Positions 484-18,173 of a stretch of 18,173 nucleotides of DNA are shown here, piece by piece. How positions within the stretch are numbered: the first letter of the stretch is position 1; each line of letters opens with the position of its first letter. The notes beneath the pieces were generated by a model. That model worked only from the letters and a program-made list of their open reading frames with translations. It was not told where the DNA came from and did not search any database. The stretch comes from a virus, in UHGV virus genome UHGV-1374553; one strand, given 5' to 3'. The translations under genes and the position numbers were made by a program.

Positions 484-484
484 C

Positions 485-809: not shown

Positions 810-813
810 CCTA

Positions 814-822: not shown

Positions 823-960
823 TAATTTATCGGGTATACTTCACATTGATTTGCACAGTTTAAAATACCCTACTTCCTAACTCAAACACATTTTATATAA
901 TTTTGTTGGTTGTTTTATCGCAACCTTTTATTCGAAATTTAACGACATGGAGGTGTAACA

Positions 961-1293: not shown

Positions 1294-1305
1294 GAGGTAT
1301 ACGAC

Positions 1306-1494
1306 ATGGGTCTATATCAAGGTAAAAACATGCGTGGCATGACGCAGGAACATTTCGCTGACTCTAAATTAAATAAGTCACGCGAACTTAATTCAGGCAT
1401 GAGCATTGACACTTCTAAATCAGAAGACAGTTACGGTAATCAAGTTCATTCCCTATCAAAACAATCATATTCAAACGACGCAGAGGAGGTTTAA
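1306..1494 (+). CDS. Hypothetical hydrophilic small protein (62 aa) between the scaffold-like gene and the capsid gene.
   Basis: SD AGGAGG sits 8 nt before ATG 1306. The ORF is tightly packed, with its stop 3 nt before the capsid-gene ATG. Ser-rich, no motif. Confidence 0.45.
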   Translation: MGLYQGKNMRGMTQEHFADSKLNKSRELNSGMSIDTSKSEDSYGNQVHSLSKQSYSNDAEEV

Positions 1495-1497
1495 CAA

Positions 1498-2691
1498 ATG
1501 GCTATTGCAGACATTATTGCTGACAAATCAAAATCAGCGCTACAAGACTTTAACCATGACCACGGTAAAGCATGGAAATGGGGAGAAAATTGGACTAATG
1601 TTGATACAATGTTTGAAACATTTATTAACAAATACTTATTCCCAAAAATTAATGAAACATTACTTATTGACATAGCTTTAGGTAACCGTTTTAACTGGTT
1701 AGCAGAAGAAGACCCTTATATAGGTCAATATTCAGAAGAATATGTTATTATGGATACTGTACCAGTCGCTATGAACTTAGGTAAAGATGAAGAATTAATG
1801 CTAAAACGTAATTATCCACGTATGGCAACACGTCTTTACGGTGCTGGATTTGTTAAAAAACAAAAATTTACATTAAATAATAACGATGCACGTTTTAACT
1901 TTAAAGACTTAGGCGACGCTACCAACTATGCCCTAGCTGTATTGAAGAAAAAGATTTCAGATATTAACGTAGAAGAAGAAAAAGAGATACGTGCTATGGT
2001 TGTAGACTATGCTATTAACCAATTATCTGATTCTAATATTCGTTACGCTACATCACAAGAAGATTTAGCAAGCAAAGTATTTGAAGCTGTATTGAATATG
2101 CAAAATAACAGTGACAAATACAATGAAGCTAATACTGCTTCAGGTGGGTCAATTGGTCGTTACACAACAGTTTCTAAATTGTCCGATATTGCTATTTTGA
2201 CAACAGATAGTATTAAATCATTCTTATTAGATACAAAAATTGCTAACACATTCCAAGCATCAGGTATTGACTTTACAGACCATGTAATTAGCTTTGACGA
2301 CTTAGGCGGTGTGTACAAAACAACTACCGATGTTACATTAGCAGAAAATGACACAATCACTTACTTACGTGGTTTCGGGGATTACCAAGCACAAATCGGT
2401 GACATTATCCCTGAGGGTACAACGTTTACGTTTGACATTTCAGAACAAACTGAATTTGTTGGTAATGTAACCGAGGTTAAACCTGATAGTGACTTGTTCG
2501 CTTTCATCTTTGACATTAACGCATTGAAATACAAACGTAATACGAATGGTATGCTTAAAAAACCATTCTACAATGGAGAATTTGACGAGGTCACTCATTG
2601 GATTCATTATTACAGTTTCAAATCTGTTTCTCCATTCTTTAACAAAATTTTAATCACTTCTGAGCCTGATGAAGAGGAACTAGAAGAATAA
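1498..2691 (+). CDS. Major capsid (head) protein (397 aa).
   Basis: SD GAGGAGG precedes ATG 1498. Size and position, after the scaffold-like gene and before the connector, match phi29-like and 44AHJD-like head gene order. The sequence resembles the 44AHJD/P68 major head protein. Confidence 0.75.
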   Translation: MAIADIIADKSKSALQDFNHDHGKAWKWGENWTNVDTMFETFINKYLFPKINETLLIDIALGNRFNWLAEEDPYIGQYSEEYVIMDTVPVAMNLGKDEELMLKRNYPRMATRLYGAGFVKKQKFTLNNNDARFNFKDLGDATNYALAVLKKKISDINVEEEKEIRAMVVDYAINQLSDSNIRYATSQEDLASKVFEAVLNMQNNSDKYNEANTASGGSIGRYTTVSKLSDIAILTTDSIKSFLLDTKIANTFQASGIDFTDHVISFDDLGGVYKTTTDVTLAENDTITYLRGFGDYQAQIGDIIPEGTTFTFDISEQTEFVGNVTEVKPDSDLFAFIFDINALKYKRNTNGMLKKPFYNGEFDEVTHWIHYYSFKSVSPFFNKILITSEPDEEELEE

Positions 2692-2709
2692 CTTTAAAGG
2701 AGCGTTAAC

Positions 2710-3708
2710 ATGACAAATCTATCACATTCAAATAGTGAACATGTTGGCGTTGAAACAGAGTTATCTGAAGACATAAGCCTGCGTGTTATCGAACATAGAA
2801 ATCGATTCCGTAGGCTTATTTTTAATCGTTATTTAGAATTTCTCCCCCTACTGATTAACTATACAAATAAACGTAGTGTGGGCATTGATTTCTTACAATT
2901 AGAAACTGCCCTACGTCAAGGTTATCAAGTTGTTGTCGGTAAGGCTAGAAATGACCAAATTATGATTCTAGGTTATATCGAGAATAACCATTATAAAAAC
3001 AGTGGAGATTTTCTTAATAACTTTAACTTTGCTTTTGAACGCCGTTTGAATGAAAAAGACATACGCTTTACAATACCTAAATACTTACGCCCTGATTACG
3101 CATTAGAAATACAACATTATGACAATTGTAAGTCGGGAGATTTCATTGTTATGCGTAATAAACCCGTGACACTTAATAACGATTACGCGATTATTTCACA
3201 TTATTGTGATGAACTTGCTGAAATTATATTAAGTCGTTTTTCACTTATTATGCAGTCAAAATTCGCTAAAATATTTAAATCAGAAGTTAACGATGAAACC
3301 ATTAATCAGTTCATAACGCAACTGTTCAATGGCTCCCCTTTCATTAAAGTCAGTGGGTTATTTGATGCAGAAGAGGACATTATAGACTTAGCAAGTGATT
3401 ACGTTAACAATGCACTCGTTGAAATGAAACGAGAATATCAAAACAAAATAAGTGAACTATCTAACTTCTTAGGTGTTAACTCTTTAGCAGTTGATAAAGA
3501 AAGCGGTGTGAGTGATACAGAAGCAAAAAGTAACCGTTCATTTACAACGTCTAACTCAAACATTTATTTAAGAGGTCGTGAAAGTATAGAAATGTTAAAC
3601 CAACGTTTCGGGTTAGAATTACACCCTTATTACGATGATGAAGCAACATCACAAGTCGATATTCAAAACATGGCTACTGACAACTACGGAGGTGGTACAA
3701 GTGGCTAG
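2710..3708 (+). CDS. Portal / upper collar (connector) protein (332 aa).
   Basis: SD AAAGGAG precedes ATG 2710. Size and position match the 44AHJD-like order capsid, upper collar, lower collar, tail fibre. Confidence 0.6.
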   Translation: MTNLSHSNSEHVGVETELSEDISLRVIEHRNRFRRLIFNRYLEFLPLLINYTNKRSVGIDFLQLETALRQGYQVVVGKARNDQIMILGYIENNHYKNSGDFLNNFNFAFERRLNEKDIRFTIPKYLRPDYALEIQHYDNCKSGDFIVMRNKPVTLNNDYAIISHYCDELAEIILSRFSLIMQSKFAKIFKSEVNDETINQFITQLFNGSPFIKVSGLFDAEEDIIDLASDYVNNALVEMKREYQNKISELSNFLGVNSLAVDKESGVSDTEAKSNRSFTTSNSNIYLRGRESIEMLNQRFGLELHPYYDDEATSQVDIQNMATDNYGGGTSG

Positions 3709-4489
3709 ATATACAACAACCTTATTTGAAATCATTGAGAGTGAATTAGATAGAAAAGGATTTAATGAATTTGTTAATAACGGACAATTAACCATTGATA
3801 ACTTTGATTATCAATTCATTCAAAAAGTGATGCGTTTTGACGATGATGTTAAAAAAATCGTAGACGAAACCTTTTTTAAAGGATTTCACTTTACAGACGA
3901 ACATATTGACCGTTATTTTAAACAATCATTTGTTACACGTTTCTTAGATAGAGAGATTAGCAGGCAAACGGTAGAAGCTTTTGCATCACAGTTATTGTTC
4001 TATACCATTGCTCGTGAGGACTATATTTATACTGTATTCGGTAATGAAATGTATAAATACTTAGAAAACCACGTGGACTTTAACAGTGATGTGATTGGTA
4101 ATATGATTTCAGAAGAAACGTCAGAAAACACGAATAATGAAACGTCTAATAGTGACCGTAATACAACACGTAATTCAACAACTGATAATCGTGAACTATC
4201 TTCCACCCTTCCTCAATCAGAAATCAACTTAAATGTTGATAATGATGTATTAACTTATGGGGATGATAATACAATATCTAAAAATAAAAACAATGGTACA
4301 GACAAGGAACAATCAAATAGTGACCGTGAAAGTAAAGGCAATGCTTCGAAAAACGGCACACAAGATACAACAGGAAATACAAAATCATTAACAAAAACAT
4401 ATCTATTGGAAAATCTTGAAAAACTTTACTCAATGCGTGAACGTTTATTCGATGATTATGATAAAAAATTGTTTTTACAAATATGGTAA
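3701..4489 (+). CDS. Lower collar protein (263 aa from GTG 3701; the ORF-track ATG at 3635 overlaps the upstream gene by 74 nt). It has an N/S/T/D-rich low-complexity C-terminal region.
   Basis: GGAGGTGG at 3688-3695 lies 8 nt before GTG 3701, which overlaps the stop of the previous gene. The position matches the lower-collar slot. Confidence 0.55.
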   Translation: MARYTTTLFEIIESELDRKGFNEFVNNGQLTIDNFDYQFIQKVMRFDDDVKKIVDETFFKGFHFTDEHIDRYFKQSFVTRFLDREISRQTVEAFASQLLFYTIAREDYIYTVFGNEMYKYLENHVDFNSDVIGNMISEETSENTNNETSNSDRNTTRNSTTDNRELSSTLPQSEINLNVDNDVLTYGDDNTISKNKNNGTDKEQSNSDRESKGNASKNGTQDTTGNTKSLTKTYLLENLEKLYSMRERLFDDYDKKLFLQIW

Positions 4490-4503
4490 TGGAGTGATAA
4501 ACA

Positions 4504-6375
4504 ATGGCAGAAGAATTTAAACCACTAGGAAATATTGAAAGTTTTTTAAACAATATATATAAAGGTAAAAAAGAATATACACCTTTTTATTCTGACAAAG
4601 CAGATTATAATACAAACGCACCTAGTTATTATGATGATTTAGCAAGAAAATCTAAACTAATAGAAATATTAGCACATAGAATATGGGATTATGATGAAGA
4701 ATTAAGAAAAAGATTTAAAGAATGGGATGAATTAATAAAACAATTCCCGTTAATTGCGGAAGCATTATTTAGAGAATGGTTACGCAATGGAACAATTGAA
4801 AAAATTATACGTGAAGAACTTGAAGATTTTAAAGATGAAGTAAGAGATTTAATTAAAGATATTGACGATTACATCAATGGTTTTGATTTAAGAAAACTAG
4901 AACCTATTTTTATTAATGGTATTAGTGGTGTAAGAAATGCTGTTAACCAATGTTTTGCTATTGATTATGAAACGAATCACATATATACTACACAATCAGA
5001 TAGTAAAAGTCCAGAAGGTTTTCATATAAGTAAATTAACGCCTAGTGGTCATTTATTATCTACGATGTGGATAGAACAAGGTGGTCATGGTACCAACTTT
5101 GGTATTGATAGAATGACAAACGGAGAACTAAAAATTTGGTTTTATCATAGTGGTATATCTAAATTAGTTTTTATACCTTATAGAGATAATACTTCTTTAA
5201 CTTTAGATAATGCTAAAGAATTAAAAGATTTAACACCAAATAGTTTAAAAGAAACAGGTTTTGCTGTAACAATTGACCAAGAGTATGATAAATTAGTAGT
5301 AAGACATTTTGATGCTAGGATTGAAATAAGAAGTCGTAAAGACATTATTAATGGTATCGATAAAATAGAAAAAGAAATACAGGTAGACCCTAACGAAAAT
5401 AATGATGATAGACCAATGCAAGGATTAGCTGTTAATGGTAACGATTTATACTGGCAAAGTGGTTGGGGAGATTTATCAAGTCCAACTAAAGTTATAAAAT
5501 ATAACTTATCTACTGGAGAGGAAGAATATACTAGGGTTGTTGATCATTTACCATTGCAAAGAGGTAACGACGACCCTTATGACGCATACAGGGAACCAGA
5601 AGGATTATTTTTACATGTAAATCCATATAATAAAAAACAAACATTATTAATGGTTTACACTACAGGAGGTTTGGGTAAACGTTATAATGTCATGTATGGA
5701 TTTGTACAAACAGGTGCTATGAACCATTGGAACTCAATGACACAACTGGGGTCTCAAAATTATAAATTAACCAAAGATGACGGACGTGCATTGTCTGCGT
5801 TAGATACTTATACATCATTAAATGATTTTACCAACCCAGGTTGGTACTACTTAACAGGTGCCGAAGCTGATAAAATGGAAGACATGCCTTATCCTACACA
5901 AGGAGCTGGGTGGTGGGTATTTGTTTCACCTTATCACCAAAACTTTGGTTTTGTACAAACAGTTAAAAGAGCTTCAGGGGCAAGAAAAATAATTTCTTTT
6001 TCACGTTCTGGTAATAGAGATAGGTTTACAGGTGAATTTAGTTATGGAATTTGGACGGTTAATACTACTAATAGTCATCATCAAGAATATTTAAATAATG
6101 ATGATTGGAATGATTTATTATCAAATGTTACTGTTCCGGGAGAGTATTATATGACAGAAGCCACTACTTTAAGATTTAATGATGTTCCAGAAGATTTTAA
6201 AGAAGTAGGTTGTTGGCTAAATATAACATCTGGTAATAATGGTGGACAAATTAGGCAAGAGTTAAAATCTAATTCATCTCAATATTTAGATATGGCTTAT
6301 AGGAACGTTCAAGTAGATACAAACAAACCAACACATGATTGGAATGTTTATAGATTATTTGATATAAATAATTAG
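4504..6375 (+). CDS. Tail fibre / receptor-binding protein (623 aa).
   Basis: SD GGAGTG precedes ATG 4504. A large protein following the collar genes, with a helical N-terminus and a G/W/Y-rich C-terminal half suggesting a beta-propeller. This corresponds to the tail-fibre slot of P68-like phages. Confidence 0.6.
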   Translation: MAEEFKPLGNIESFLNNIYKGKKEYTPFYSDKADYNTNAPSYYDDLARKSKLIEILAHRIWDYDEELRKRFKEWDELIKQFPLIAEALFREWLRNGTIEKIIREELEDFKDEVRDLIKDIDDYINGFDLRKLEPIFINGISGVRNAVNQCFAIDYETNHIYTTQSDSKSPEGFHISKLTPSGHLLSTMWIEQGGHGTNFGIDRMTNGELKIWFYHSGISKLVFIPYRDNTSLTLDNAKELKDLTPNSLKETGFAVTIDQEYDKLVVRHFDARIEIRSRKDIINGIDKIEKEIQVDPNENNDDRPMQGLAVNGNDLYWQSGWGDLSSPTKVIKYNLSTGEEEYTRVVDHLPLQRGNDDPYDAYREPEGLFLHVNPYNKKQTLLMVYTTGGLGKRYNVMYGFVQTGAMNHWNSMTQLGSQNYKLTKDDGRALSALDTYTSLNDFTNPGWYYLTGAEADKMEDMPYPTQGAGWWVFVSPYHQNFGFVQTVKRASGARKIISFSRSGNRDRFTGEFSYGIWTVNTTNSHHQEYLNNDDWNDLLSNVTVPGEYYMTEATTLRFNDVPEDFKEVGCWLNITSGNNGGQIRQELKSNSSQYLDMAYRNVQVDTNKPTHDWNVYRLFDINN

Positions 6376-6386
6376 GAGGTAAAATC

Positions 6387-7184
6387 ATGGTCAAGATTGA
6401 AAAGAATTTAAGTTATAACAACAATTATTATCCTGAAACCAATCAAAGAAAGTACATTACTATTCACGAAACTGCAAATACGGGTGTCGGCGCAAATGCC
6501 GATGCTCATGCTAATTTCATTAATAATGGCTCAGGGGAAACATGGCATTATTCGGTTGATGACACGAAAACCGTACAACACTACTTGCATACAACATCTT
6601 GCTGGCATGCTGGCACGTATAACGGTAATGTTCAAAGTATTGGGATAGAAATGTGCGTGAACAGTGACGGTAACTACAAAAAAACACTTCAAAACACAAT
6701 TGAGTTAGTTAAAAAACTGATGAAAGAGTTAAATATTTCAGCTAGCAACGTTGTCCAACATAACTTTTGGAGTGGTAAAAACTGTCCTACCTTACTTAGA
6801 CAAGGCACACACGGTATGAATTGGGAACAATTTATTGCAGGGGTTAAAGGAAAATCAACAGAAAGTGCTAAACCGAGTAAGAAAGAAGTGCCAAAAGGTT
6901 GGGATGATGTTAATAAACACGGCACTATATGGAAAAAAGAAAAAGCTACCTTTGTTGTAGGTAGTGAAAAAATAGAAACACGTATAGGGGCACCCTTTAG
7001 AAGTGTTAAAAGTGGTGGTTTTGTAAAACCTAAACAAGAAATTAAATATGATTATGTTTGCCTACAAGACGGGCATGTTTGGATACAACTAGAAAACAAC
7101 AAAGGTCAACAAGAATTTGTACCTGTTAGAACATGGAACAGTGAAACGGGTAAAGTAGGCAAGACATGGGGTGAATTTAAATGA
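6387..7184 (+). CDS. Endolysin: N-acetylmuramoyl-L-alanine amidase (Amidase_2/PGRP fold) plus a C-terminal SH3b cell-wall-binding domain (265 aa).
   Basis: SD AGGAGG precedes ATG 6387. Zn-ligand pattern HETAN...H...NCPT is typical of T7-lysozyme-type amidases. The C-terminal 100 aa (GWDDVNKHGTIW...APFRSV...DGHVWI...VPVRTWN...WGEFK) closely resemble the LysK/phi11/lysostaphin SH3b domain. Confidence 0.85.
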   Translation: MVKIEKNLSYNNNYYPETNQRKYITIHETANTGVGANADAHANFINNGSGETWHYSVDDTKTVQHYLHTTSCWHAGTYNGNVQSIGIEMCVNSDGNYKKTLQNTIELVKKLMKELNISASNVVQHNFWSGKNCPTLLRQGTHGMNWEQFIAGVKGKSTESAKPSKKEVPKGWDDVNKHGTIWKKEKATFVVGSEKIETRIGAPFRSVKSGGFVKPKQEIKYDYVCLQDGHVWIQLENNKGQQEFVPVRTWNSETGKVGKTWGEFK

Positions 7185-7240
7185 TAAAGAAACTTAAAAA
7201 TTTATTAGTAGCAGGATTTAGAATCATCATACGTTGGTAA
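7181..7240 (+). CDS. Possible 19-aa micro-ORF (MIKKLKNLLVAGFRIIIRW) joined to the endolysin stop by an ATGA overlap.
   Basis: ATG 7181-7183 overlaps TGA 7182-7184 of the endolysin. The peptide is amphipathic and hydrophobic. There is no independent SD, so this is speculative. Confidence 0.15.
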   Translation: MIKKLKNLLVAGFRIIIRW

Positions 7241-7262
7241 TCAAAATATAGGAGGAATATAT

Positions 7263-7610
7263 ATGAGTAGTAGATTTACTAGAAATTTATCAGAGGTAAA
7301 AGACGTTAATAAGTTAGCGCAACATGTAACAACACAAAATGACTTAGTTCAAACAACTGAGGGCGATGTATTTGTTGTCACTAAAAATGGTTTCCAAAAA
7401 ATAACAGGTGGGGTTGATAGTGGAGAATTAGATACTATCAAAGATGATGTAGATAAATCAAAATCAGACATTACTAATATAAAATCTGAACAAACAAAAG
7501 TTAAAAATCGTGTTACTGAATTAGAAACGTTTAAAGATAAACAGGATACAAAAAACAGTGAATTAGATAAAACGATTGAAGATTTAACGTCACGTATTGA
7601 AGCATTATAA
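7263..7610 (+). CDS. Hypothetical protein with a C-terminal coiled coil (115 aa), possibly a minor structural or tail-associated protein.
   Basis: SD GGAGG lies 7 nt before ATG 7263. Heptad-rich C-terminus. It lies between the endolysin and the tail knob. Confidence 0.5.
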   Translation: MSSRFTRNLSEVKDVNKLAQHVTTQNDLVQTTEGDVFVVTKNGFQKITGGVDSGELDTIKDDVDKSKSDITNIKSEQTKVKNRVTELETFKDKQDTKNSELDKTIEDLTSRIEAL

Positions 7611-7659
7611 AACCCAACTGATGACATTGAAAATGAAGAACCAACAGAATAAATAATTA

Positions 7660-7668
7660 TGATATAAT
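7660..7668 (+). promoter_or_regulatory. Second copy of the TG-extended -10 (TGATATAAT) within TATGATATAAT, upstream of the tail-knob gene.
   Basis: Exact 11-mer TATGATATAAT at 7658-7668 with an AT-rich upstream region. Confidence 0.4.
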
Positions 7669-7672
7669 AAGT

Positions 7673-7700
7673 ACATACAGTTTGTATGTGCTTATTTTAT
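7673..7700 (+). terminator. Hairpin (ACATACA-GTT-TGTATGT) plus a T-rich tract immediately after the -10 element. It could be a partial terminator for the upstream genes or a 5'-end stem-loop of the tail-knob transcript.
   Basis: Perfect 7-bp stem at 7673-7679 / 7683-7689 with a 3-nt loop, followed by GCTTATTTTAT. Confidence 0.3.
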
Positions 7701-7721
7701 ATATATATAGGAGGTTAAACA

Positions 7722-9485
7722 ATGGCAGACAGACGAACAACAGAGTTTGTATTTTTTTATGATACACCTTTAACAGATTATCAAAATACCATTCATTTTA
7801 GTAGTAATAGTGAACGTGATGATTACTTTTTGAATGGAGGTCATTTTAAAGCGACTAGTTACGTAAAACTACCATTTAATTTTATACGTGATCGTTCCAT
7901 TGTCAAAGTACCACAAATGAATTGGAGTGAAGCGCAAGGCATTAATTACTGTACATTTAAATCAGGTTTTGAGAATAGACGTTATTACGCTTTTGTTAAT
8001 GCAATAGAATACATTAATGATAATGTGATTCAAATGACACTTGTCATTGATACAGTCATGACTTATACACAAGGTAATGTATTATCAAACATTCAAAATG
8101 CACGTGTTGAACGTCAACATTTACCAAAATCACAATATGAATACATGTTACCTTACCTTCGTAATAATGACGATGTATTGAAAGCAACGAATAAATACTA
8201 TTCAAGAAACAATTTAGAGCAATTCGGTAATAACTATGTCATGTTTCAATCAAGTGCAGACCTATCTAAAAAATTCGGTAGTAAAAAAGAGCCAAATTTA
8301 GATAGTTCAAAAGGATTAACATATGACTACATGACAAGTCCCGTTAATCTATACATTATGTCACATTCAAATTTTGTTAATTTTATGGATAAAATGAGCA
8401 AGTACCCTTGGATTACACAAAACTTCCAAAAAATTCAAATGATACCCGAAAAGTTCATTGATAGTGGGGACATGATAAGTGTTAAAACCGATGAAAATAT
8501 TACAGGTTTGTACACCCTAAAAAATAATGGTCGTTCCAAAACATGGTCATTACCTAACCTAAACATGAGTTTTAACGAATTTTTGAATTTAGCAGGTATC
8601 AATCAACCTGAATTACGTCATTTAGTCCGTAATGAATATTTCACAATAGAGGTTTATTCATGGAATGGTGATGTAATGTTACTAGACGCTGGTAAGATAA
8701 CACCTGAAACAGGTGTGAAATTTAGAACAAAATCCATAATTGGTTTTCATAATGAAGTTAGAATTTATCCAGTTGACTATAACAAAGGCGAAGCAGAACA
8801 AGCGATTAAGTCAACCAATGGTGAGATACTCATAGATACAGGGTCATTCTTAAACACTGCTATTACATTTGATAGTTTTGCGGAAGTACCTGTGTTAATT
8901 GATAATGGTATTTTGGGACAATCACAACAAGCAAACCGTGTGAAAAATGCTGAAAGTCAATTAATTACAAATCGTGCGCAAAATATTGCAAGTGGTGATG
9001 ACATTAAATCTAAATTCTATGACGTGGCAAGTATTGCATCAAATATCAGTCCAACACAACTATTCAGTAAGTTTAATGATGAATATACGTATTATCAAAA
9101 CCAACAAGCTGAATATAAAGATTTGGCATTACAACCACCCTCAACAACATCTAGCCAAATGGGTAATGCTTTCCAAATAGCAAATAGTATTAATGGTTTA
9201 ACAATGAAAATTGGTATACCGTCACCATTTGATTTAGGAAGTATCATGAAGTATTATTTCATGTTTGGATTTGAAAATTCAGACCCTAGTACATCACCTT
9301 ATCCAATTAACAGTTGGACGGTATGCAATTACTTAAAAATGAGTGGTACCTACACATTACCACGTATCGACCCTATGCTTCTAGAACAACTCAAAGTGAC
9401 ACTTGAAAGTGGTGTACGTTTTTGGCATAATGACGGGTCTAATAATCCAATGGCGCAAAACGTCATGAACAATAAATTTAGATAG
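7722..9485 (+). CDS. Tail knob (phi29 gp9-like distal tail) protein (587 aa).
   Basis: SD AGGAGG precedes ATG 7722. Size (phi29 gp9 is 599 aa) and position match the tail-knob slot of 44AHJD/P68-like phages. Confidence 0.6.
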   Translation: MADRRTTEFVFFYDTPLTDYQNTIHFSSNSERDDYFLNGGHFKATSYVKLPFNFIRDRSIVKVPQMNWSEAQGINYCTFKSGFENRRYYAFVNAIEYINDNVIQMTLVIDTVMTYTQGNVLSNIQNARVERQHLPKSQYEYMLPYLRNNDDVLKATNKYYSRNNLEQFGNNYVMFQSSADLSKKFGSKKEPNLDSSKGLTYDYMTSPVNLYIMSHSNFVNFMDKMSKYPWITQNFQKIQMIPEKFIDSGDMISVKTDENITGLYTLKNNGRSKTWSLPNLNMSFNEFLNLAGINQPELRHLVRNEYFTIEVYSWNGDVMLLDAGKITPETGVKFRTKSIIGFHNEVRIYPVDYNKGEAEQAIKSTNGEILIDTGSFLNTAITFDSFAEVPVLIDNGILGQSQQANRVKNAESQLITNRAQNIASGDDIKSKFYDVASIASNISPTQLFSKFNDEYTYYQNQQAEYKDLALQPPSTTSSQMGNAFQIANSINGLTMKIGIPSPFDLGSIMKYYFMFGFENSDPSTSPYPINSWTVCNYLKMSGTYTLPRIDPMLLEQLKVTLESGVRFWHNDGSNNPMAQNVMNNKFR

Positions 9486-9497
9486 GGGACATAGACA

Positions 9498-9896
9498 ATG
9501 GAACAAAATGAATTACAAGTGAGTATTCAAGATATGGAAAGTTTTCAAAAATTCATATACAGTGGGGACATGTATTTGCTATACGCTGTATTGATATTTA
9601 TGGTAATTGATATTTTAACAGGTTGGGCGAAAGCTTTAAAAAATGGGAATTTATGGTCAACCAAATCTGTATATGGCGCTGGACGTAAAGTCATGGCACT
9701 GTTCGTTGTAATCATTGCTAACATTATTGATAATATATTGAACTTAAACGGTGCTTTAGTCGTTGTTATCATGTTCTATTACATTGCTACGGAGGGGTTA
9801 AGTATTTTAGAAAATTTAGCTGAAATGAATGTACCATTTCCAGAACAAATTAAAGATAAATTGGAGGTACTCAAAAACAAGGAGGGTAACAAATAA
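9498..9896 (+). CDS. Holin (132 aa).
   Basis: Hydrophobic helices at MYLLYAVLIFMVIDILTGW, VMALFVVIIANIIDNIL and ALVVVIMFYYIATEGLSIL, followed by a charged C-terminal tail. This is the typical phage holin-4 architecture of phi29 gp14 / phiLC3 size class. Confidence 0.8.
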   Translation: MEQNELQVSIQDMESFQKFIYSGDMYLLYAVLIFMVIDILTGWAKALKNGNLWSTKSVYGAGRKVMALFVVIIANIIDNILNLNGALVVVIMFYYIATEGLSILENLAEMNVPFPEQIKDKLEVLKNKEGNK

Positions 9897-11242
9897 TGGC
9901 GAAATGGCATAATGGTTATCAAGTATGGTTAACAGAAGCACAAAGTTTAGAAAATGCCCAACTTGTCGCAAATAGAGCGCTTAAAAAAGGTTGGGTAAAA
10001 ATGGCCATATGTGGTATGTTAGGTAACATGAGACATGAATCATCTGTTAACCCTAATATGTATGAATTCGGTATGAGTTGGGGTGCTGATAGAGGTTTTG
10101 GATTAGTTCAATGGACACCTAGAAGTAAATATTGGAATTGGGCATTACAAAAAGGATATAAAGAAAGTGAATTGCGCGACGGAGAAGCTCAAATGGATAG
10201 AATCGATTGGGAAGCTAAAAACGGAGAACAGTGGATGATACATCCTAATTTCGGAGAAACATTTGCGCAATTCCGTAAAAATAAAAATAATTGGAATATA
10301 TCACAAGCTACAGAATCATTTGCAAGGGGATATGAAAGACCTTTAGAAAGTGCATTAATTCAAAGTTTACCTGAACGAATTGCATTCGCTAAAAAGTGTT
10401 ATGATAATTTAGACTTTTCAGGTGGGTCTAGTGGTGGCGACGATGATGACGATGACGGTGGAAGTAGTGGTGGTGACGGTAGCAGTGGCGTAGGCGATAG
10501 TGCATTAGAAATCATTAAAAAAGCTGTTGATAAACTTGTTAATTCTATTGAAGACGCGTTAACATGGGATTTACACAGTATCGGAACAGAAAAGTTTTTC
10601 TCAAATTCTTTCTTCGCTATGCAGAAAACGTTTAATAATACGTATCGTATTCAAATGAATGTTAAACTGCTAGACCAAATCAAAGACCTTGTAGACGGTA
10701 TAGACGCAGGTGGGTCTAGTGGTGGTGGAGATGATGACGATGACGGTGGAAGTAGTGGGGGTGGAACTAAGGCAGAATACAACCTTAAAAATATCCGTTA
10801 CACGAACGATAGTCATTTAAATTATCCATTCGACCCCGACGGTACCAATCCCAACTATCCATTCCCACGCCCTCACTTAGGTGTGGATATAGACTTTTAC
10901 AATGAAAATTTAACAAGTCCAGTGGTTGGTACAACTTACACGATTACAGACCCTGCACCTAGTTGGCAAGGAGGCACAGGTTACGGAAACCACATTATTA
11001 TTGATAGTCCCGACGGTTACCAATATTTATTCGGACATCTTAACTCATTTAAAGTTAAAACAGGGGATAAAGTTAAAGTCGGCGACCTTATAGCTATAAC
11101 CAATAATACAGGGGATTCAACAGGTCCACACTTACACTTTGAAATTAGAAAAGGAGCTAATAAAGATAAGTCTTACGGTGGGACTGGTAAAGTTCAAGAC
11201 CCTGCTGTTTGGCGTGCTATGGTCAAACGTAAAACAAAATAA
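9896..11242 (+). CDS. Tail-associated peptidoglycan hydrolase (phi29 gp13-like, 448 aa). It has an N-terminal lysozyme-like domain, a central domain of about 75 aa flanked by two Gly/Ser/Asp linkers, and a C-terminal M23 (LytM/lysostaphin-type) endopeptidase.
   Basis: The ATG overlaps the holin stop (ATAATGG). The N-terminus has CGMLGNMRHESS...GFGLVQW (phage tail lysozyme-like). The C-terminus has HLGVD (HxxxD) ... GHLN ... PHLHFE (HxH), the M23 signature. phi29 gp13 has the same lysozyme+M23 layout. Confidence 0.8.
   Translation: MAKWHNGYQVWLTEAQSLENAQLVANRALKKGWVKMAICGMLGNMRHESSVNPNMYEFGMSWGADRGFGLVQWTPRSKYWNWALQKGYKESELRDGEAQMDRIDWEAKNGEQWMIHPNFGETFAQFRKNKNNWNISQATESFARGYERPLESALIQSLPERIAFAKKCYDNLDFSGGSSGGDDDDDDGGSSGGDGSSGVGDSALEIIKKAVDKLVNSIEDALTWDLHSIGTEKFFSNSFFAMQKTFNNTYRIQMNVKLLDQIKDLVDGIDAGGSSGGGDDDDDGGSSGGGTKAEYNLKNIRYTNDSHLNYPFDPDGTNPNYPFPRPHLGVDIDFYNENLTSPVVGTTYTITDPAPSWQGGTGYGNHIIIDSPDGYQYLFGHLNSFKVKTGDKVKVGDLIAITNNTGDSTGPHLHFEIRKGANKDKSYGGTGKVQDPAVWRAMVKRKTK
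10421..10475 (+). repeat. Direct repeat copy 1 inside the tail-lysin gene. It encodes the GGSSGGDDDDDDGGSSGG linker.
   Basis: The 55-bp segment matches 10709-10763 with about 6 mismatches. The offset is 288 bp, which is 96 codons and therefore in frame. Confidence 0.8.
10709..10763 (+). repeat. Direct repeat copy 2 inside the tail-lysin gene (second Gly/Ser/Asp linker).
   Basis: See copy 1. Confidence 0.8.
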
Positions 11243-11264
11243 ACTTTATTTTTATAAAAACTTA

Positions 11265-11273
11265 TGATATAAT
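11265..11273 (+). promoter_or_regulatory. Third, orphan copy of the TGATATAAT / TATGATATAAT motif. It lies downstream of the last late gene and points into the convergent non-coding region.
   Basis: TTATGATATAAT at 11262-11273, preceded by the AT-rich TTTATTTTTATAAAAAC. There is no plus-strand CDS downstream. The next element is a strong terminator about 200 nt away. Confidence 0.35.
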
Positions 11274-11288
11274 ATTAATTAGATAGGA

Positions 11289-11320
11289 CGATAAAAATCG
11301 TTGTGCCTATCTAAAAAATA
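11289..11320. terminator. Imperfect hairpin in the convergent intergenic region. It is a possible terminator for the minus-strand (polymerase) transcript.
   Basis: AGATAGG...CCTATCT outer stem with an inner ACGAT-AAAA-ATCGT stem. On the minus strand it is followed by AATTAATATTATATCATAAGTTTTTA. Confidence 0.3.
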
Positions 11321-11440
11321 AACAAAACATAATCAGTAGTAAGACATAACTACTTTAAAAATTATGTCACGTCTAGGAAACAGACGCTAAAGGCTAACCC
11401 TCCTTTAATTGCTTGTTAAATCATAAATTTTACATTACTT

Positions 11441-11477
11441 AAACCACGTCTTATTGGGTAGACGTGGTTTTTATTTT
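11441..11477 (+). terminator. Strong rho-independent terminator for the plus-strand late operon. It overlaps the 3' end and stop codon of the convergent polymerase gene.
   Basis: Perfect 11-bp stem AAACCACGTCT (11441-11451) pairs with AGACGTGGTTT (11460-11470), with an 8-nt loop, then TTATTTT. The polymerase stop is at 11451-11453 on the minus strand. Confidence 0.65.
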
Positions 11478-13754
11478 GCTATGAATTCTTTTTAAGATTT
11501 TAATATTGGTTGCTTCATCAATCGAGTGTGTTACGGGGTAGATATCATTAATTGAGAAGATACCAAGTGGACTTTCAATATAAAGGATATCGTCATAGTT
11601 TGTTGGGTCGTAATTCTGTCTGATTGATTCAAACATTTGTTGTTTGTCTTCTTCTAATATATTACTAAAATAGGTCGGGTAATCTTGTCCCATTTCAATA
11701 TGAGTTTCAGATGGGTAGATTGAAATAGTGCCTTGTTTATTATAGATGCTTTTATTGTTGTATATAACTGCACCGTGATGAAAGTCATTATTAATGAAAT
11801 CCTCGAATGATTGATTTGTATTAAATGCGTCTAACGGTACACCTGCACTTGCTACATGAATATTACCGTTTGGTTTAAGGTAAGCATATTTCTTATGATT
11901 CAGTACATACATTTTTTCAATACGGTCATTCTCAACGTCCCATTTACCTAAAGAAATAGGGTCGAAAATAGATGCGTCAATCTTATCTTTAATCGATGAT
12001 TTAAGATATAAACTGTCTGTGTCGCAGTATATAAAATTGTCGTCAATTTCTTGTTGTGTTAAGTCTTGTAATGGTTCAAGTAGATTGTATAATGATTGTG
12101 ACGTAACAAAGGTAGAAAATAAAATGTTTCGCTCTGTATTTTTATAACCATTAATCATATTGTATAGAAAACCGTCTTCATTTTTACGAAATAAGTTGAA
12201 GTGTGAACGTAAGGCTGGTATACCATATAAACCATTGAGTACGACTTTAGATAACATAACCTCCTCAGCACTATATATGGTTTCGTTTGGCTCGTCTGTG
12301 ATTGTGTAGTCATAAGGTGTTGGCATATCTATTTTAGTTTTTAGTTTACCTTGTGTTTTAATGAAATAATTGTCGTGTATAATATCCCTAGCACCAAAAT
12401 ATTCACAATCAAAAGTTAAATAACTCATGGTTGATATACGTGATAGGTCAAGCCCTGTTAAGTCCTCAATCATACGTAATGTATTTGTGTTGATGTTGAT
12501 ATAATCCTTGTCTTCTTTTAGGGCTGTGTTGTAGTATTTAACGAGTATTTTTTTAATCATGTCACTTTCAATATGAAATAGAATGTCAAAGTTAAATGAT
12601 TGTTTCGTCATTTTGTACAATGTAAATTGGTCACGATTGTCTAAGTCTGTTGATACTACCGTTTCTTTATCATATTCGTTATATGAAGAAAGGTAAGTAG
12701 GTATTTTATCATGATACATAACATAAGGATAAGATGAATTAATATCTATAGAAAAACAAGGCTCATTGATAATTTGTCCAATATATTTAGGGTTATACAT
12801 ATTTAATCCACCATTGTAAAAACCTTTGATATAGTCATACAAGTTCCGATTGTGAAAATGATAGTCGGTGTAGGATATCGGGTCATTACCTACCTTATGT
12901 AGTAATTGAAATTTTGTTAAATCATTATTCATATAACTTTCTAAAATGTTCACACTAAACGTCATTTTTGAATAATCGAAACCTGGAAATATATCCGAAT
13001 AGTGTATATGACATTGACCTAAAATTATAACATCATTATGGATGTAAGTCATTTGGTCATGGTCTAAACGTTTAAAACATTCATAGGCGTAAGCGTATGA
13101 CTCCACATCGTCCATATCCGACTCAATATCAAATATATTATATTGAAAGTCTGTTTTAAGTTGGTCTGATGTGAGATAACCACCGTCTTTAAGTTTCTTA
13201 CCTAATGTAGCAATTGAAGCTGTTGTTTTCATGAAGTTATCAACTACAACAAATTTAAAACCTTCTAAGAAAAAGATTAGGTCTAAGTTAATTGAAGATT
13301 TAACACGTTTTTCTAAAACAATGTTATCCTCTTTGGCATCTGTTTTAGCTTCTTTCATATTAACTGTGTTTTCGTTTGTTTCTGCTGACTTCATAAACAA
13401 ATTTTCAACTTTTACATTGGGATAGATATGTTGTATATCATGCAGTAAAAAGTGATTGTCGTACTTATTACAGTTATGTGCAATCATTTCTATAGCTGTA
13501 CGTGATTTATTGATTGTATCTTTACGTTCTGCATACTTAAAGAATGTTTTAAAGAATGAGTGAAAAGAGGGGAAAACCTCAACATCAATTGTTCCTTGAT
13601 TATCCCAACCAATAGCCACACTGTAGACAACGTTTTTATAATATGTTGGTTGTTTTCTTCCCTCTATCTTATTGTATGCTAGGGTTTCAATATCCCAATA
13701 TAATGTCATTTTGCGTAAACCTTTATGTGTTTGCATTGCCTCCAATAATCCCAT
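11451..13754 (-). CDS. Protein-primed family-B DNA polymerase (phi29 gp2-like, 767 aa).
   Basis: SD AAGGAG sits 8 nt before the ATG. Exo I is YWDIETL, Exo II is HNCNKYDNHF and Exo III is YIHNDVIIL. Motif A is DINSSYPYV (Dx2SLYP), motif B is KVVLNGLYG (Kx3NSxYG), and motif C is IYCDTDSLY. TPR-like insertions are consistent with a protein-primed polymerase. Confidence 0.9.
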   Translation of the reverse strand: MGLLEAMQTHKGLRKMTLYWDIETLAYNKIEGRKQPTYYKNVVYSVAIGWDNQGTIDVEVFPSFHSFFKTFFKYAERKDTINKSRTAIEMIAHNCNKYDNHFLLHDIQHIYPNVKVENLFMKSAETNENTVNMKEAKTDAKEDNIVLEKRVKSSINLDLIFFLEGFKFVVVDNFMKTTASIATLGKKLKDGGYLTSDQLKTDFQYNIFDIESDMDDVESYAYAYECFKRLDHDQMTYIHNDVIILGQCHIHYSDIFPGFDYSKMTFSVNILESYMNNDLTKFQLLHKVGNDPISYTDYHFHNRNLYDYIKGFYNGGLNMYNPKYIGQIINEPCFSIDINSSYPYVMYHDKIPTYLSSYNEYDKETVVSTDLDNRDQFTLYKMTKQSFNFDILFHIESDMIKKILVKYYNTALKEDKDYININTNTLRMIEDLTGLDLSRISTMSYLTFDCEYFGARDIIHDNYFIKTQGKLKTKIDMPTPYDYTITDEPNETIYSAEEVMLSKVVLNGLYGIPALRSHFNLFRKNEDGFLYNMINGYKNTERNILFSTFVTSQSLYNLLEPLQDLTQQEIDDNFIYCDTDSLYLKSSIKDKIDASIFDPISLGKWDVENDRIEKMYVLNHKKYAYLKPNGNIHVASAGVPLDAFNTNQSFEDFINNDFHHGAVIYNNKSIYNKQGTISIYPSETHIEMGQDYPTYFSNILEEDKQQMFESIRQNYDPTNYDDILYIESPLGIFSINDIYPVTHSIDEATNIKILKRIHSKIKTTSTQ

Positions 13755-13813: not shown

Positions 13814-15064
13814 TTATAATCTCATTTGCTTAACAAGGTTTTTCTTTGTCCGTTCTACATAGTTATCCTCGTACATTTTTTCGTGTCTTTCAAAGTCCGT
13901 TGGGTTAAGTTTTTTCTGTTGCGTAATGTACAATTTTATAATTTTGTTAATATTTAAATCAATGTATTGGATATTATTCACGATATATGATTTTGAATAC
14001 GCATTATCAAAATGTAAGTTAGACGGTTTATAGTATTTCTTAGCGTGTGTTTCTTTATAGAAGTTTTCTTTTAAATAAGTTGCTTTGTCTTCAACGTCCC
14101 TAACTTCTGTACAGAATGTATATTGTTCTGCATAGGGAAGCACTTTCATATTAACCGTGTAGTCGTTGACGTTATACATCACTTTAATATAAGCATCTTC
14201 TGTTTTAATGTAGAAGAAATCCCCATTATGGCTTATATGGTTACGTAATCCGTCATCGGCTAAGTTGTAGTTATTAAAATCAAATTCCCCTGTGGTCATA
14301 GCATCATTGTCACTGTCAAATGCTCTCGTGTTACGTTTTTCGTTTGAATTGTCGTTTCTGCGCATTTCAAGTAAAACATTGCCATACTGACGCATTGAGT
14401 TAATTTGATGTTTCTCAAGTTTATTAAATATGTTTAAGTTCGCCAGTAGGGGACTAGAGAAGTTAACTGCGTTACCTAATAAAACGATTTTAGGTATTTC
14501 TAAATAAGGTATGTTACCATGATTACGGTCTATGGATTCATAAATCGTTTTTAGTTTGTCCCATTCATCTGATAAGTAATCACTCTCTAACGCTAAAAAC
14601 TCATCATAAACAATAATTGGATAGTCTTTTAAAAAGTTAGAATGATATTTTAAATCAGTGGCATTATTTAAGTCTGTAATGATACACATGCTTTCTCCTG
14701 AATAACTTGCATTAATATAATCTTCATTTCTATGAAATGATAATTCTTTGTTTTTAAATTCGTTGTGTTCATCAACGATTTTAGAAATGAGTTCACGATA
14801 TGCACCTCTTAATGTATAGTGACGTGCAACCAATACAAATTTAATTCCTAATTCAATAGATAACTTCATAAAGAATGAAATGTAGTTAAATGTTTTACCG
14901 TCTGAACGGTTAGAAATTGATATTAAAAAGTCAATGTCTTTGTTCATAAGTTCGTTGGCTAATTCGATTTGGTTGTACTTCTTGGGTATATGTTTTCGGA
15001 ACTTGGTAAGCATATTTTGATATTGTTTGACTTCTTCTAGTCTGTTCATGTTTATGACCTCCAT
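13814..15064 (-). CDS. DNA encapsidation ATPase (phi29 gp16-like). The likely true start is the second ATG at 15049 (411 aa).
   Basis: Walker A is ISNRSDGKTF and Walker B is IIVYDEF. FVLVARHYTL resembles phi29 gp16 FIYVRRYKPEL, and LLGNAVNFSSPLLANLNIF resembles CLSNAVSVVNPYFLFFNLV. The first ATG lacks an SD, but its GGAGG provides the SD for the ATG 15 nt downstream. Confidence 0.8.
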   Translation of the reverse strand: MEVINMNRLEEVKQYQNMLTKFRKHIPKKYNQIELANELMNKDIDFLISISNRSDGKTFNYISFFMKLSIELGIKFVLVARHYTLRGAYRELISKIVDEHNEFKNKELSFHRNEDYINASYSGESMCIITDLNNATDLKYHSNFLKDYPIIVYDEFLALESDYLSDEWDKLKTIYESIDRNHGNIPYLEIPKIVLLGNAVNFSSPLLANLNIFNKLEKHQINSMRQYGNVLLEMRRNDNSNEKRNTRAFDSDNDAMTTGEFDFNNYNLADDGLRNHISHNGDFFYIKTEDAYIKVMYNVNDYTVNMKVLPYAEQYTFCTEVRDVEDKATYLKENFYKETHAKKYYKPSNLHFDNAYSKSYIVNNIQYIDLNINKIIKLYITQQKKLNPTDFERHEKMYEDNYVERTKKNLVKQMRL

Positions 15065-15606: not shown

Positions 15607-15609
15607 AAA

Positions 15610-15723
15610 TTACTCCTCCTCGTCTTTATAAACCATATTAAAACGTTCTAATGTTTTAGGTGCTAGCAATGATAGTATACCATATAAAATAATACATGTT
15701 GTGATAATTGTCCCTATAGTCAT
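15610..15723 (-). CDS. Micro-ORF encoding a 37-aa hydrophobic peptide (MTIGTIITTCIILYGILSLLAPKTLERFNMVYKDEEE).
   Basis: SD AAGGAGG sits 9 nt before the ATG. The start overlaps the stop of the upstream 29-aa micro-ORF (ATGA). Its stop lies 3 nt before the ATG of the downstream gene. It has one predicted TM helix and an acidic tail. Confidence 0.4.
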   Translation of the reverse strand: MTIGTIITTCIILYGILSLLAPKTLERFNMVYKDEEE

Positions 15724-15809
15724 TTTTTATTACCTCCTTGTATATTGTAGTTTATTATCTCTAATTCGATTATGATAATTATTATTGATATTACAATGAA
15801 TGTATTCAT
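15720..15809 (-). CDS. Micro-ORF encoding a 29-aa hydrophobic peptide (MNTFIVISIIIIIIELEIINYNIQGGNKK).
   Basis: SD GGAGG sits 7 nt before the ATG. It lies immediately downstream of the internal terminator. Its stop TGA overlaps the next ATG. Confidence 0.35.
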   Translation of the reverse strand: MNTFIVISIIIIIIELEIINYNIQGGNKK

Positions 15810-15820
15810 AAAATAACCTC

Positions 15821-15856
15821 CAAAAATAAAAGGGTAGGGAACCACCCCCACCCTTT
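15821..15856 (-). terminator. Intrinsic terminator/attenuator on the minus strand, inside the early region between the SSB-like gene and the micro-ORF/replication gene block.
   Basis: Minus-strand RNA folds as AAAGGGUGGGG-GUGGUU-CCCUACCCUUU, an 11-bp stem including one G-U pair with a 6-nt loop. It is followed by UAUUUUU, which appears as the A-run 15822-15828 on the plus strand. Confidence 0.5.
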
Positions 15857-15918
15857 AGTATAATATAGTATTGATTTTTATGTGTGACTAACAATATTTA
15901 TAATAATAAAACCTATTT

Positions 15919-16350: not shown

Positions 16351-16572
16351 TTATATTATTTGTCCAATTTCTTTTAATGCATCATAATCTACTCTATAAG
16401 TTTTAATATCACGTTTGATATCAATCACTTTATGTGTTTCAGGTATATGTTCTCTTGCTTCTGTTTTGAACATACGATAATGTTGCTTAATGATAAAGAA
16501 GTCGTATAACTCTCCTAAATCATTCTCACAATAGATGACAAAACCTTTAACTTCAACGTCAACTTGTGTCAT
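16351..16572 (-). CDS. Hypothetical early protein (73 aa).
   Basis: SD AGGAGG lies 7 nt before the ATG. No recognisable motif. Confidence 0.5.
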   Translation of the reverse strand: MTQVDVEVKGFVIYCENDLGELYDFFIIKQHYRMFKTEAREHIPETHKVIDIKRDIKTYRVDYDALKEIGQII

Positions 16573-17939: not shown

Positions 17940-18173
17940 CTCCTTTAAATTGTTAACTAAATTATATCACGAGTAGTGACGTAACGCAAGTGGAAATAAT
18001 AAAACTCAATTACTAAATCAAATATCAAACCTAATGAAAAATTCAAAACCTCTAAACATAAATATGGTAAGTGCATTTTAAAATTCAAACCCTTAAACCA
18101 CATTGCTCCTTTTCTGATTATTTTATCGAGGCGGGGGTCGGTTATTTTTTTAATTTGTAATCCAAGTATATTT
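17940..18173. repeat. Right inverted terminal repeat (ITR-R).
   Basis: This is the reverse complement of 1-234. Position p pairs with 18174-p. Confidence 0.9.
17961..17989 (-). promoter_or_regulatory. Mirror copy of the ITR promoter in ITR-R. It faces inward (leftward) and would drive the minus-strand early operon.
   Basis: Same sequence as 185-213 by ITR symmetry. It is followed on the minus strand by GGAGG (17943-17939) and a GTG-initiated ORF at 17931. Confidence 0.55.

Follow-up and report, generated by a model that had tools for sequence, protein, structure and literature searches.

The gap between the converging gene blocks

The virus genome UHGV-1374553 (18,173 nt, analysed at its full length and called the window below) is the complete genome of a staphylococcal-type phi29-like picovirus (Rountreeviridae, Rakietenvirinae-like) in which two blocks of genes converge. 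The structural and lysis genes fill the plus (+) strand at 235-11242 and end with a 448-aa peptidase gene (9896-11242), and the replication and packaging genes run on the minus (−) strand from 17791 down to 11451, where they end with the type-B DNA polymerase gene (pol, 11451-13754). The 208-nt gap between the two blocks is the locus of a candidate small RNA gene. A preliminary description of this gap had proposed a discrete, structured plus-strand RNA, and the prediction is supported by a layout conserved among relatives, by compensatory changes in a 5′ hairpin and by G·U pairs on the + strand; very probably the gap does hold a real + strand RNA element. It has no coding potential, with no open reading frame (ORF) of at least 20 aa at 11243-11450 on either strand, and ARAGORN found no tRNA in the region. 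Rfam searches at gathering and permissive thresholds, covering the region, the whole window and three loci that bear the H3 module described below, gave no family and only sub-threshold chance matches.

Exact copies of TATGATATAAT occur three times in the window, all on the + strand (812-822, 7658-7668 and 11263-11273), compared with 0.07 copies expected, and none of 200 shuffled sequences reached three. Every copy holds a perfect extended −10 element, TGATATAAT. The first two copies stand ahead of genes; the third lies 21 nt past the stop codon of the peptidase gene, the last late gene, and no ORF of at least 20 aa follows it, in agreement with the preliminary description. In this orphan promoter, the extended −10 element is at 11265-11273 (+) without a −35 element, and the transcript start predicted from spacing only would fall at about 11280-11281. 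Of the motif TGNTATAAT there are nine copies where 2.8 would be expected, most of them intergenic and preceding genes. The label ‘late-type’ given earlier to the TATGATATAAT promoter fits in so far as it precedes late genes, but a copy with one mismatch (17826-17816) precedes an early-strand gene.

The other end of the candidate gene is marked by an intrinsic terminator on the + strand only, with a stem-loop at 11441-11470 (11 pairs, then TTATTTT) and a T tract up to 11477, ∼170 nt downstream of the third TATGATATAAT copy. Previously called the strongest in the genome, it is the best terminator of the plus strand, but a minus-strand terminator at 15856-15829 has more pairs. Together, promoter and terminator delimit a predicted small RNA of ∼197 nt (11281-11477, +) that contains no ORF; of the length of 45-200 nt suggested earlier, the upper value fits this prediction and the 45 nt does not. 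The folding energy of the region was lower than that of shuffled sequences on both strands (z = −5.1 on the + strand and −6.9 on the − strand), as was that of the predicted transcript (z = −4.85 for 11281-11480). Since there is no terminator between the late-gene stop codon and the promoter, the late mRNAs would include the region as well, and the terminator at 11441-11477 would be common to the late operon and the predicted small RNA. The pol stop codon (11451-11453, −) is inside the loop of this + strand terminator. On the pol strand, only UUUAAG and no U tract comes after the hairpin, and read-through of pol transcripts, antisense to the candidate RNA gene, is therefore probable. In several relatives, the shared terminator is replaced by two separate ones.

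Four hairpins lie upstream of the terminator, of which the three listed in the preliminary description were present at slightly different coordinates. H1, the 5′ hairpin, spans 11279-11314 (+) rather than 11289-11320 and consists of a basal stem AGATAGG/CCTATCT and an apical motif ACGAT-AAAAATC-GTTGT with a bulged G (11288-11305). H2 (11327-11367, +) has an inner stem AGTAGT/ACTACT at 11335-11354, 1 nt off the earlier 11334-11353, and an outer stem ACATAAT/ATTATGT (11327-11333 / 11361-11367). The hairpin CGTCT-AGGAAAC-AGACG is at 11370-11386, not at 11363-11379, and belongs to a module named H3 here (11368-11400, +). The fourth hairpin, H4 (TAAAGG-CTAACCCT-CCTTTA, 11388-11407, +), is a predicted fold that had not been listed. 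A minus-strand TGACATAAT-like promoter element reported at 11353-11361 is present at 11369-11361; it sits in the outer stem of H2, is not conserved in the closest relatives (L004 and L191; further genomes and contigs are cited by such numbers) and is probably a chance match. A hairpin within ∼10 nt after the promoter was also observed at the other two exact TATGATATAAT copies (∼829-870 and 7666-7696), which suggests that 5′ hairpins are a regular feature of the transcripts of the window phage.

Conservation and strand of the unit

We collected junctions between pol and the late genes from GenBank (PT1-9, Andhra, 44AHJD and Portland), 33 IMG/VR contigs, 19 metagenome contigs and Logan, as well as from ten look-ups among 568 polymerase homologues, which gave relatives with 70-87% pol identity. 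Among GenBank phages, the polymerase nearest to that of the window, from Staphylococcus phage PT1-9, is no more than 68% identical to it. The same layout was found at the junction of more than 50 distinct relatives: a promoter, a 5′ hairpin and a terminator with a late-strand U tract, with the A-rich block AAAACAUAAUC usually following H1 and variable hairpins filling the space up to the terminator. An extended −10 or a full −35/−10 promoter stands right after the late-gene stop codon in nearly every lineage examined, ranging from a full TTGACA-17-TATACT in L199 to an imperfect TTGTATACT in L005. A version of the unit is present in all staphylococcal relatives examined save L027, where pol and the late genes are 9 nt apart and leave no room for it. 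Apart from L027, the gap measures 83-487 nt and the homologous units span 110-337 nt; the versions of Staphylococcus aureus and Staphylococcus epidermidis phages are short (∼110 nt) and have one or two hairpins besides the terminator. On the late strand, this short form includes AUGCUAG..CUAGUAAAUAAAAUACAAAACAUAAUC.

The 5′ end of the unit is better conserved than the genes on either side. Andhra and 44AHJD have 82.5% identity in its 57-nt 5′ module, which extends from the TATG through the A-rich block, compared with 68.3% in pol and 70.3% in the peptidase gene; the module is matched by 96-97 GenBank Staphylococcus phage records. Among the matches listed, none had an RNA annotation at the locus; the only annotations were ‘terminator’, pol and spurious small coding sequences (PT1-9). 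The micro-ORFs found in Andhra and the S. aureus phages differ in frame and length between lineages. We also considered and rejected a pol-strand micro-ORF (..DYVLxFIY*), whose frame is shifted by a 1-nt indel in PT1-9 and whose copy in the window has no start codon. The comparison did not extend to the other Rountreeviridae genera (Streptococcus and Enterococcus phages), in which the gene order after pol differs and the junction is not comparable. As search keys, the pattern TATAAT-N-AAAACATAATC was too unspecific and the H1 apical motif gave only coding chance matches in IMG/VR outside the family.

The comparison of structures across relatives, which had been proposed as a check, showed that the region is conserved not only in sequence but also in pairing. 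In a nine-lineage alignment, both sides have changed at 7 of the 14 H1 pairs in a compensatory manner. Of the H1 cells, 90.5% are paired, compared with 77% in shuffled alignments (0 of 500 reached the observed value) and 28-50% in slid-partner controls. The basal stem is wholly different between lineages yet always pairs, as seen in AGAUAGG/CCUAUCU, AGGUAGG/CCUACCU, AGGUUAG/CUAACCU, AACAAAG/CUUUGUU and AUCUAUG/CAUAGGU and in the GCUAG/CUAGU of the short forms. Furthermore, the insertions found in particular lineages (20 to ∼100 nt) are all located at the tip of the hairpin, a pattern that fits an RNA and not a protein-binding DNA palindrome of fixed spacing. In Andhra-type phages, a second hairpin covaries at three of five pairs.

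Several observations agree on the strand. The inner helix of H1 (ACGAU-loop-GUUGU) requires two G·U pairs, which are possible on the + strand only, and 34 of the 35 short-form stems have further G·U pairs, as do L054, L200 and L202 and the second covarying hairpin of the Andhra type. On the pol strand these would be A·C mismatches, so the conserved G·U pairs point to the late strand. In line with this, the late strand gives the better fold of the H1 region in 19 of 22 representatives, and a late-strand terminator of its own, apart from the pol terminator, is present in L006, L193, L194, L201, L202 and the PT1-9 group. Because the G·U pairs, the polarity of the terminator and the shared orientation of H3 (see below) agree, we place the predicted RNA on the + (late) strand of the window, as judged from sequence comparison.

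The gaps of two relatives, L005 (5295-5706) and L043 (3795-4083), additionally contain ∼70-nt elements (GGTCAAC.CCTAAA.CCTAAAGGA...GACCAAAGGG). Two direct-repeat copies bracket the RNA in L005 and one related copy is present in L043; these could be a small mobile or duplicated element.

Modules downstream of the 5′ hairpin

H1 is followed by an A-rich linker (11315-11334, +) that ends in the invariant block AAAACATAATC (11324-11334). This A-rich block is invariant in all 35 short-form sequences (Rosenblum-type and Andhra-type), is also present in the window, L004, L191, L193, L194, L195, L198, L201, L202 and PT1-9, and does not differ between phages of S. aureus, S. epidermidis and Staphylococcus chromogenes. 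Downstream of H1, the predicted RNA is built of modules. At the position of H2, L004, L191, L193, L195 and L201 carry another hairpin, ACACG/CGUGU, with three different loops, and L198 carries none; because relatives have different hairpins at the same position, a hairpin is retained there and its sequence is not. The support for H2 and H4 comes from replacement or sequence conservation and not from covariation of the kind seen in H1. Just ahead of the terminator, the block ATAAATTTTACATTACTT (11423-11440, +) aligns with CATA(N)TTTTACTTAC in L006, L043, L193, L197, L201, L202 and the PT1-9 group; its pol-strand reading, TAAGTAAAAT, resembles a −10 element.

H4 holds CCCTCCTTT at 11398-11406. 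In this segment, CCCUCCUUU shares 8 nt with the 3′ tail of the 16S rRNA of Bacillales (CCUCCUUU; shuffle p = 0.009). A match of 7-13 nt to this tail was found in 7 of 14 lineages and reached 13 of 13 nt in L194. In L199, the 16S-tail-like element and a terminator make up the whole unit, and in L201, L194 and the PT1-9 group the element has become the second or third of several units in tandem, each equipped with a promoter and a terminator. Two or three such late-strand mini-units (a −10 element, a short RNA and a terminator) were observed in tandem in L194 (3792-4208), L201 (3801-4190), L195, L198 and L001. In L194, a 56-aa pol-strand ORF with a hydrophobic stretch lies antisense to the mini-units, a layout that recalls, by analogy, type I toxin–antitoxin pairs.

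The H3 module (GUCUAGGAAACAGAC...AAAGGCUAACC) consists of the hairpin and a tail CTAAAGGCTAACC, both of which are invariant in nine picovirus lineages. Its pattern, a 4-5 bp stem, a loop (U)AGGAAAC(A) and then NNN-AAA(N)GC(U)AACC, oriented with transcription, describes the window copy and recurs in unrelated lytic Bacillales phages (GUCUAGGAAACAGAC-NNN-AAANGC(U)AACC): L203 (1201-1229), L204 (1201-1229), L205-L218, L224, L220, L221, L225 and L227. Among the carriers of the 30-nt module are Bacillus phages of the 031MP003 group and the 88-kb Staphylococcus phage PT1-4. The contexts differ, H3 directly following the major head gene in a group of ∼50-kb phages, a tRNA in 150-160-kb phages and a head protease gene in another instance. 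In all four of the unrelated phage groups, H3 is oriented with the neighbouring genes or tRNAs, and the stem covaries (GUCU/AGAC, GACU/AGUC and AGACU/AGUCU).

We built a covariance model from 13 instances of H3, the window copy being one of them, and with this model the window copy scored 44.7 bits (E = 1.6e-14). Under the model, genomes with H3 gave one copy each, and Andhra, 44AHJD and the L006 clade gave none. We scanned 185,579 bacterial species genomes twice by pattern without finding H3, no Rfam family corresponds to it and our literature search yielded no report of the sequence. Except for an endolysin domain, no protein is common to the window phage and the H3-bearing loci examined. 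By itself, H3 may represent a new phage RNA motif, and it is a separate lead, as a phage-only motif common to unrelated Bacillus and Staphylococcus phages. One of its carriers, L205, is deposited as ‘Pectobacterium phage PcaP2EGY’ (OR599646.1), but has a Gram-positive-type ribosome-binding site, AAGAAAGGAGTGAAAGCTATG; Bacillus phage records match the same query segment (blastn), MT700412.1 at 90% identity, as PcaP2EGY does. The host label of PcaP2EGY looks doubtful.

Candidate functions of the predicted RNA

The explanation that we favour is a conserved, independently transcribed small RNA gene with a trans-acting regulatory or decoy role, a statement for which, taken as a whole, we consider the case evenly balanced. 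Transcription by the host sigma-A RNA polymerase would begin at ∼11281, from the extended −10 element (11265-11273), and end at the intrinsic terminator (11441-11477), giving the ∼197-nt RNA, with read-through of the late operon carrying the same sequence as a 3′ untranslated region (UTR). H1 and the terminator would cap the two ends of the RNA, and its likely working surfaces would be the A-rich block AAAACAUAAUC, H3 and, in the window clade, the C/U-rich CCUCCUUU. The RNA may act in trans by pairing with ribosome-binding regions or other conserved host or phage RNA, lowering translation; as an alternative, it may titrate an RNA-binding factor. Action by base pairing specifically is a tentative proposal, on the doubtful side of even. 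Given that the A-rich block is identical across phages of three staphylococcal species, its partner is more likely a conserved host RNA or protein. Phage-encoded small RNAs are a kind already known; for this locus, we found no publication or annotation, and the literature that we searched held no report of an RNA gene or transcriptome of staphylococcal picoviruses.

A search for targets did not single out a partner. The translation-initiation region of pol was an obvious candidate to the eye, with complementarities of 8-13 nt that differ by lineage (such as AGCAAUUAA-GGAG in the window and UUUUAAAGGGU in L006), but unbiased scans did not bear this out, and we rejected it: its windows rank 11-87 of 1300-4500 windows with RNAduplex and are in the top 5-31% by local pairing score, which is not exceptional genome-wide. 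A 10-nt match between the ribosome-binding site of the holin gene and the 3′ arm of H1 was likewise dismissed, being found in the window only and not kept in Andhra, 44AHJD or PT1-9. CCCUCCUUU is complementary to many phage ribosome-binding sites of the AAAGGAGG type, with none of them preferred. In Andhra (L061), the best non-self partner of the A-rich block is GGAUUAUGUUUAUAUG at 1676-1691, 24 nt into gp5 (−17 kcal/mol), a site with no equivalent in the other three genomes.

A number of these and other results weigh against a trans-acting small RNA. In four complete phage genomes, we found no conserved site complementary to the A-rich block, and the pol initiation region ranked only 5/21, 3/20, 2/20 and 21/23 among the gene starts of four genomes. 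The A-rich block is missing in the L006 clade, L199 and L200, so that no single seed is universal. Similarly, half of the 14 lineages compared lack the 16S-tail-like element or have only a weak form of it, namely L002 and L054 (both Andhra-type), L035 and L018 (both Rosenblum-type), L006, L202 and L200, and CCUCCUUU is half buried in the predicted H4 stem. The module with this element has the look of a −10 element and a Shine–Dalgarno (SD) sequence when read on the pol strand, with an ORF after it in L194 and the PT1-9 group. Read-through of the late operon would transcribe the sequence even without the promoter, which is thus not strictly required for this, and our literature search found no RNA-seq study of these phages.

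The closest known systems include bacterial small RNAs of the DapZ/MicL type, which arise at the 3′ end of an operon from an internal promoter of their own and share the terminator of the operon. The predicted RNA resembles them in the promoter just past the last coding sequence, the shared terminator, the double existence as 3′ UTR and separate RNA (predicted for the window) and the conserved single-stranded stretch between 5′ hairpin and terminator; unlike them, it is encoded by a phage, in a Gram-positive setting without a known chaperone, and equipped with exchangeable hairpin modules. RNAIII and RsaE are C-rich (UCCC-type) staphylococcal small RNAs that pair with SD regions, a likeness that extends to the complementarity of CCCUCCUUU to AAAGGAGG-type sites of the phage, but the motif in the window is 8 nt of the 16S tail, half buried in H4 and confined to about half of the lineages. 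The 5′ stabilisers of Bacillus and its phages (cryIIIA STAB-SD and the SP82 polypurine stabiliser) protect downstream coding mRNA. They share with the window SD-like purine runs (AGGAAA in the H3 loop and AAAGG after it) and 5′-terminal hairpins; in contrast, nothing coding follows in the window RNA. Finally, lambda OOP and P22 sar are small antisense RNAs of temperate phages that overlap their targets and act in cis. Like them, the predicted transcript is short, with a dedicated promoter and a terminator near a converging gene, but it overlaps pol only in the terminator hairpin.

We judge it unlikely that the RNA is a new kind of modular phage RNA, acting as part of a ribonucleoprotein or as a decoy and not as an ordinary antisense regulator. 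H3, exchanged among unrelated lytic Bacillales phages, and the copy of the 16S 3′ tail would then jointly bind a host factor, for instance a defence protein or a component of the ribosome or of ribosome assembly. We give a similarly low probability to the reading in which the RNA, and H3 above all, sequesters a host factor or defence component as a protein-binding decoy or anti-defence RNA. The invariant loop and tail of H3 above a covarying stem are typical of hairpins recognised by proteins, the loop contains GGA, and the motif is common to unrelated lytic Bacillales phages while being found in none of the bacterial species genomes scanned; the lack of a base-pairing target would also fit. 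However, Andhra-type and Rosenblum-type phages keep the RNA gene without H3, the H3-bearing loci and the window phage have no protein in common apart from the endolysin domain, and no candidate binding partner is known.

The region could also have no separate RNA function and merely serve as the 3′ UTR and terminator of the late operon and as a buffer between the converging transcription units, in which polymerases from the promoter would only block or run into early-strand read-through and the hairpins would protect mRNA 3′ ends. The inclusion of the region in late mRNAs, the likely read-through from pol past a hairpin with no U tract on that strand and the absence of an identified target are all consistent with this reading. 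Yet a buffer would need neither the 11-nt single-stranded block that is invariant in 35/35 short forms, nor a covarying hairpin exactly at the predicted start, nor terminators of its own in a unit that is tandemly duplicated in several lineages, nor an H3 found in unrelated phages in other contexts. These features, together with a 5′ module better conserved than the flanking genes, weaken the buffer reading, and we consider it quite improbable.

The segment 11398-11440 can, in addition, be read on the pol strand, as a weak promoter TAAGTAATGTAAAAT and a strong SD sequence AAAGGAGGG for a small gene after pol that would have been lost in the window and retained in some relatives. If the pol-strand SD sequence were the functional reading, the ‘anti-SD’ of the + strand would merely be its complement. 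The spacing between the −10-like and the SD-like motif (∼22 nt) is conserved across clades, and a 56-aa ORF follows GTAAGTATAAT...AAAGGAGGTGAACAAATCATG in L194 and a 12-aa ORF follows GAAAGGAG in the PT1-9 group. On the other hand, no start codon follows the motif in the window, L004, L191, L193 or the L006 clade, the −10-like motif has no correctly spaced TG or −35 element, and no pol-strand terminator follows the region. Moreover, the module has its own + strand promoter and terminator in L199, L201, L194 and the PT1-9 group, and H1, the A-rich block and H3 are left unexplained. Such a lost gene is an improbable account of the locus.

The preliminary description had further linked the gap to the packaging (prohead) RNA (pRNA) of phi29, which assembles on the portal and scaffolds the packaging ATPase. 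The two are alike in that both are small noncoding RNAs (predicted here) with their own promoter in compact genomes of phi29-like phages with protein-primed replication, and besides this unit we recognised no conserved, gene-like noncoding sequence in these 16-18 kb genomes. A conserved core with insertions at hairpin tips is also typical of structural RNAs. The packaging ATPase of the window (416 aa, PHROG 2150, 13814-15064, −) has no detectable sequence match to phi29 gp16, solved structures (PDB) or Pfam, and the portal matches the phi29 connector family weakly; being too diverged from gp16, the ATPase sequence is uninformative on RNA dependence. The phi29 pRNA gene (RF00044) lies at the genome end (147-320 bp) and is read in the early direction, whereas the candidate RNA is central (11263-11477 of 18173), on the strand opposite pol and the ATPase gene, and is read in the late direction.

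The Rfam pRNA model had no match in the region or the whole window, neither at the gathering score nor at E ≤ 10. As pRNAs share only about 12% of their sequence (PMC5066667), missing similarity is weak evidence alone. In pRNA, a helix A formed by the 5′ and 3′ ends closes a three-way junction with helices C/E and D (PMC5066667). The predicted fold of the transcript has neither helix A nor a three-way junction, H1 standing alone at its 5′ end. A pRNA-like closing helix, TTATGAT (11262-11268)/ATCATAA (11421-11427), was considered and discarded: it uses the promoter, upstream of the predicted start, and is broken by an uncompensated A-to-C change of the −10 element in L004, a relative with 93% pol identity. 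The CE and D loops of pRNA are complementary to each other, which allows rings to form. The one 4-nt loop–loop match here, ACCC in the H4 loop with GGGU in the terminator loop, is restricted to the window and L004, L191 and L193 having lost it. The short forms of ∼110 nt, made up of H1 with or without one hairpin and a terminator, have no second loop for such a pairing and could not adopt a pRNA-like fold at all. What is conserved in the unit is single-stranded sequence and not a fold, unlike the pattern of pRNA. In two reviews, PMC5066667 among them, pRNA is described for no phages other than phi29 and its Bacillus relatives, and in the Lactococcus phi29-like relative asccphi28 there is no evidence of pRNA. 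With no Rfam match, no helix A, no conserved loop pairing, and the wrong strand and position, the link to pRNA did not hold up. We consider a packaging RNA analogue very improbable, and equally so the extreme form of the ribonucleoprotein idea in which the RNA is an essential virion assembly or packaging cofactor, a non-homologous counterpart of pRNA.

Staphylococcal picoviruses such as P68, 44AHJD, SAP-2 and Andhra, which have only ∼20 genes, are among the foremost candidates for therapeutic use. If the small RNA gene is real, a conserved and unannotated item is missing from this parts list, and it would likely be a regulator of the infection programme. The locus is also the one concrete candidate for an RNA cofactor in phi29-like phages outside Bacillus.

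Some features elsewhere in the window bear on its promoters. The genome is bounded by a perfect inverted terminal repeat of 234 bp (1-234 and 17940-18173), which contains a full promoter TTGCGT-17-TGATATAAT (205-213; 17969-17961) and a ribosome-binding site up to the start codon, so that the first gene at either genome end is driven by identical signals. Promoters of the window fall into two classes. The first, TTGCGT-N17-TGnTATAAT, is found at both repeat ends, before pol and before the gene at 16351-16572; the second is TATGATATAAT, without a −35 element. The extended −10 elements of both classes are at 205, 814, 7660 and 11265 on the + strand and at 13793, 16609, 17824 and 17969 on the − strand. 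A further perfect TGATATAAT lies inside the pol gene on its antisense strand (12497-12505, +) and could be a chance match or an antisense promoter.

In the early block, 312 nt at 15607-15918 (−) have no called gene of at least 60 aa and hold the strong minus-strand terminator (15856-15829) and a small hydrophobic ORF (15730-15894, 54 aa). In the late block, 179 nt of noncoding sequence (782-960) after the gene at 485-781 contain the first TATGATATAAT copy, a hairpin, a C-rich run CCCTACTTCCTAACTC and a terminator-like hairpin (908-925) that precedes the gene at 961-1293. This stretch could be a long leader or a second small transcript.

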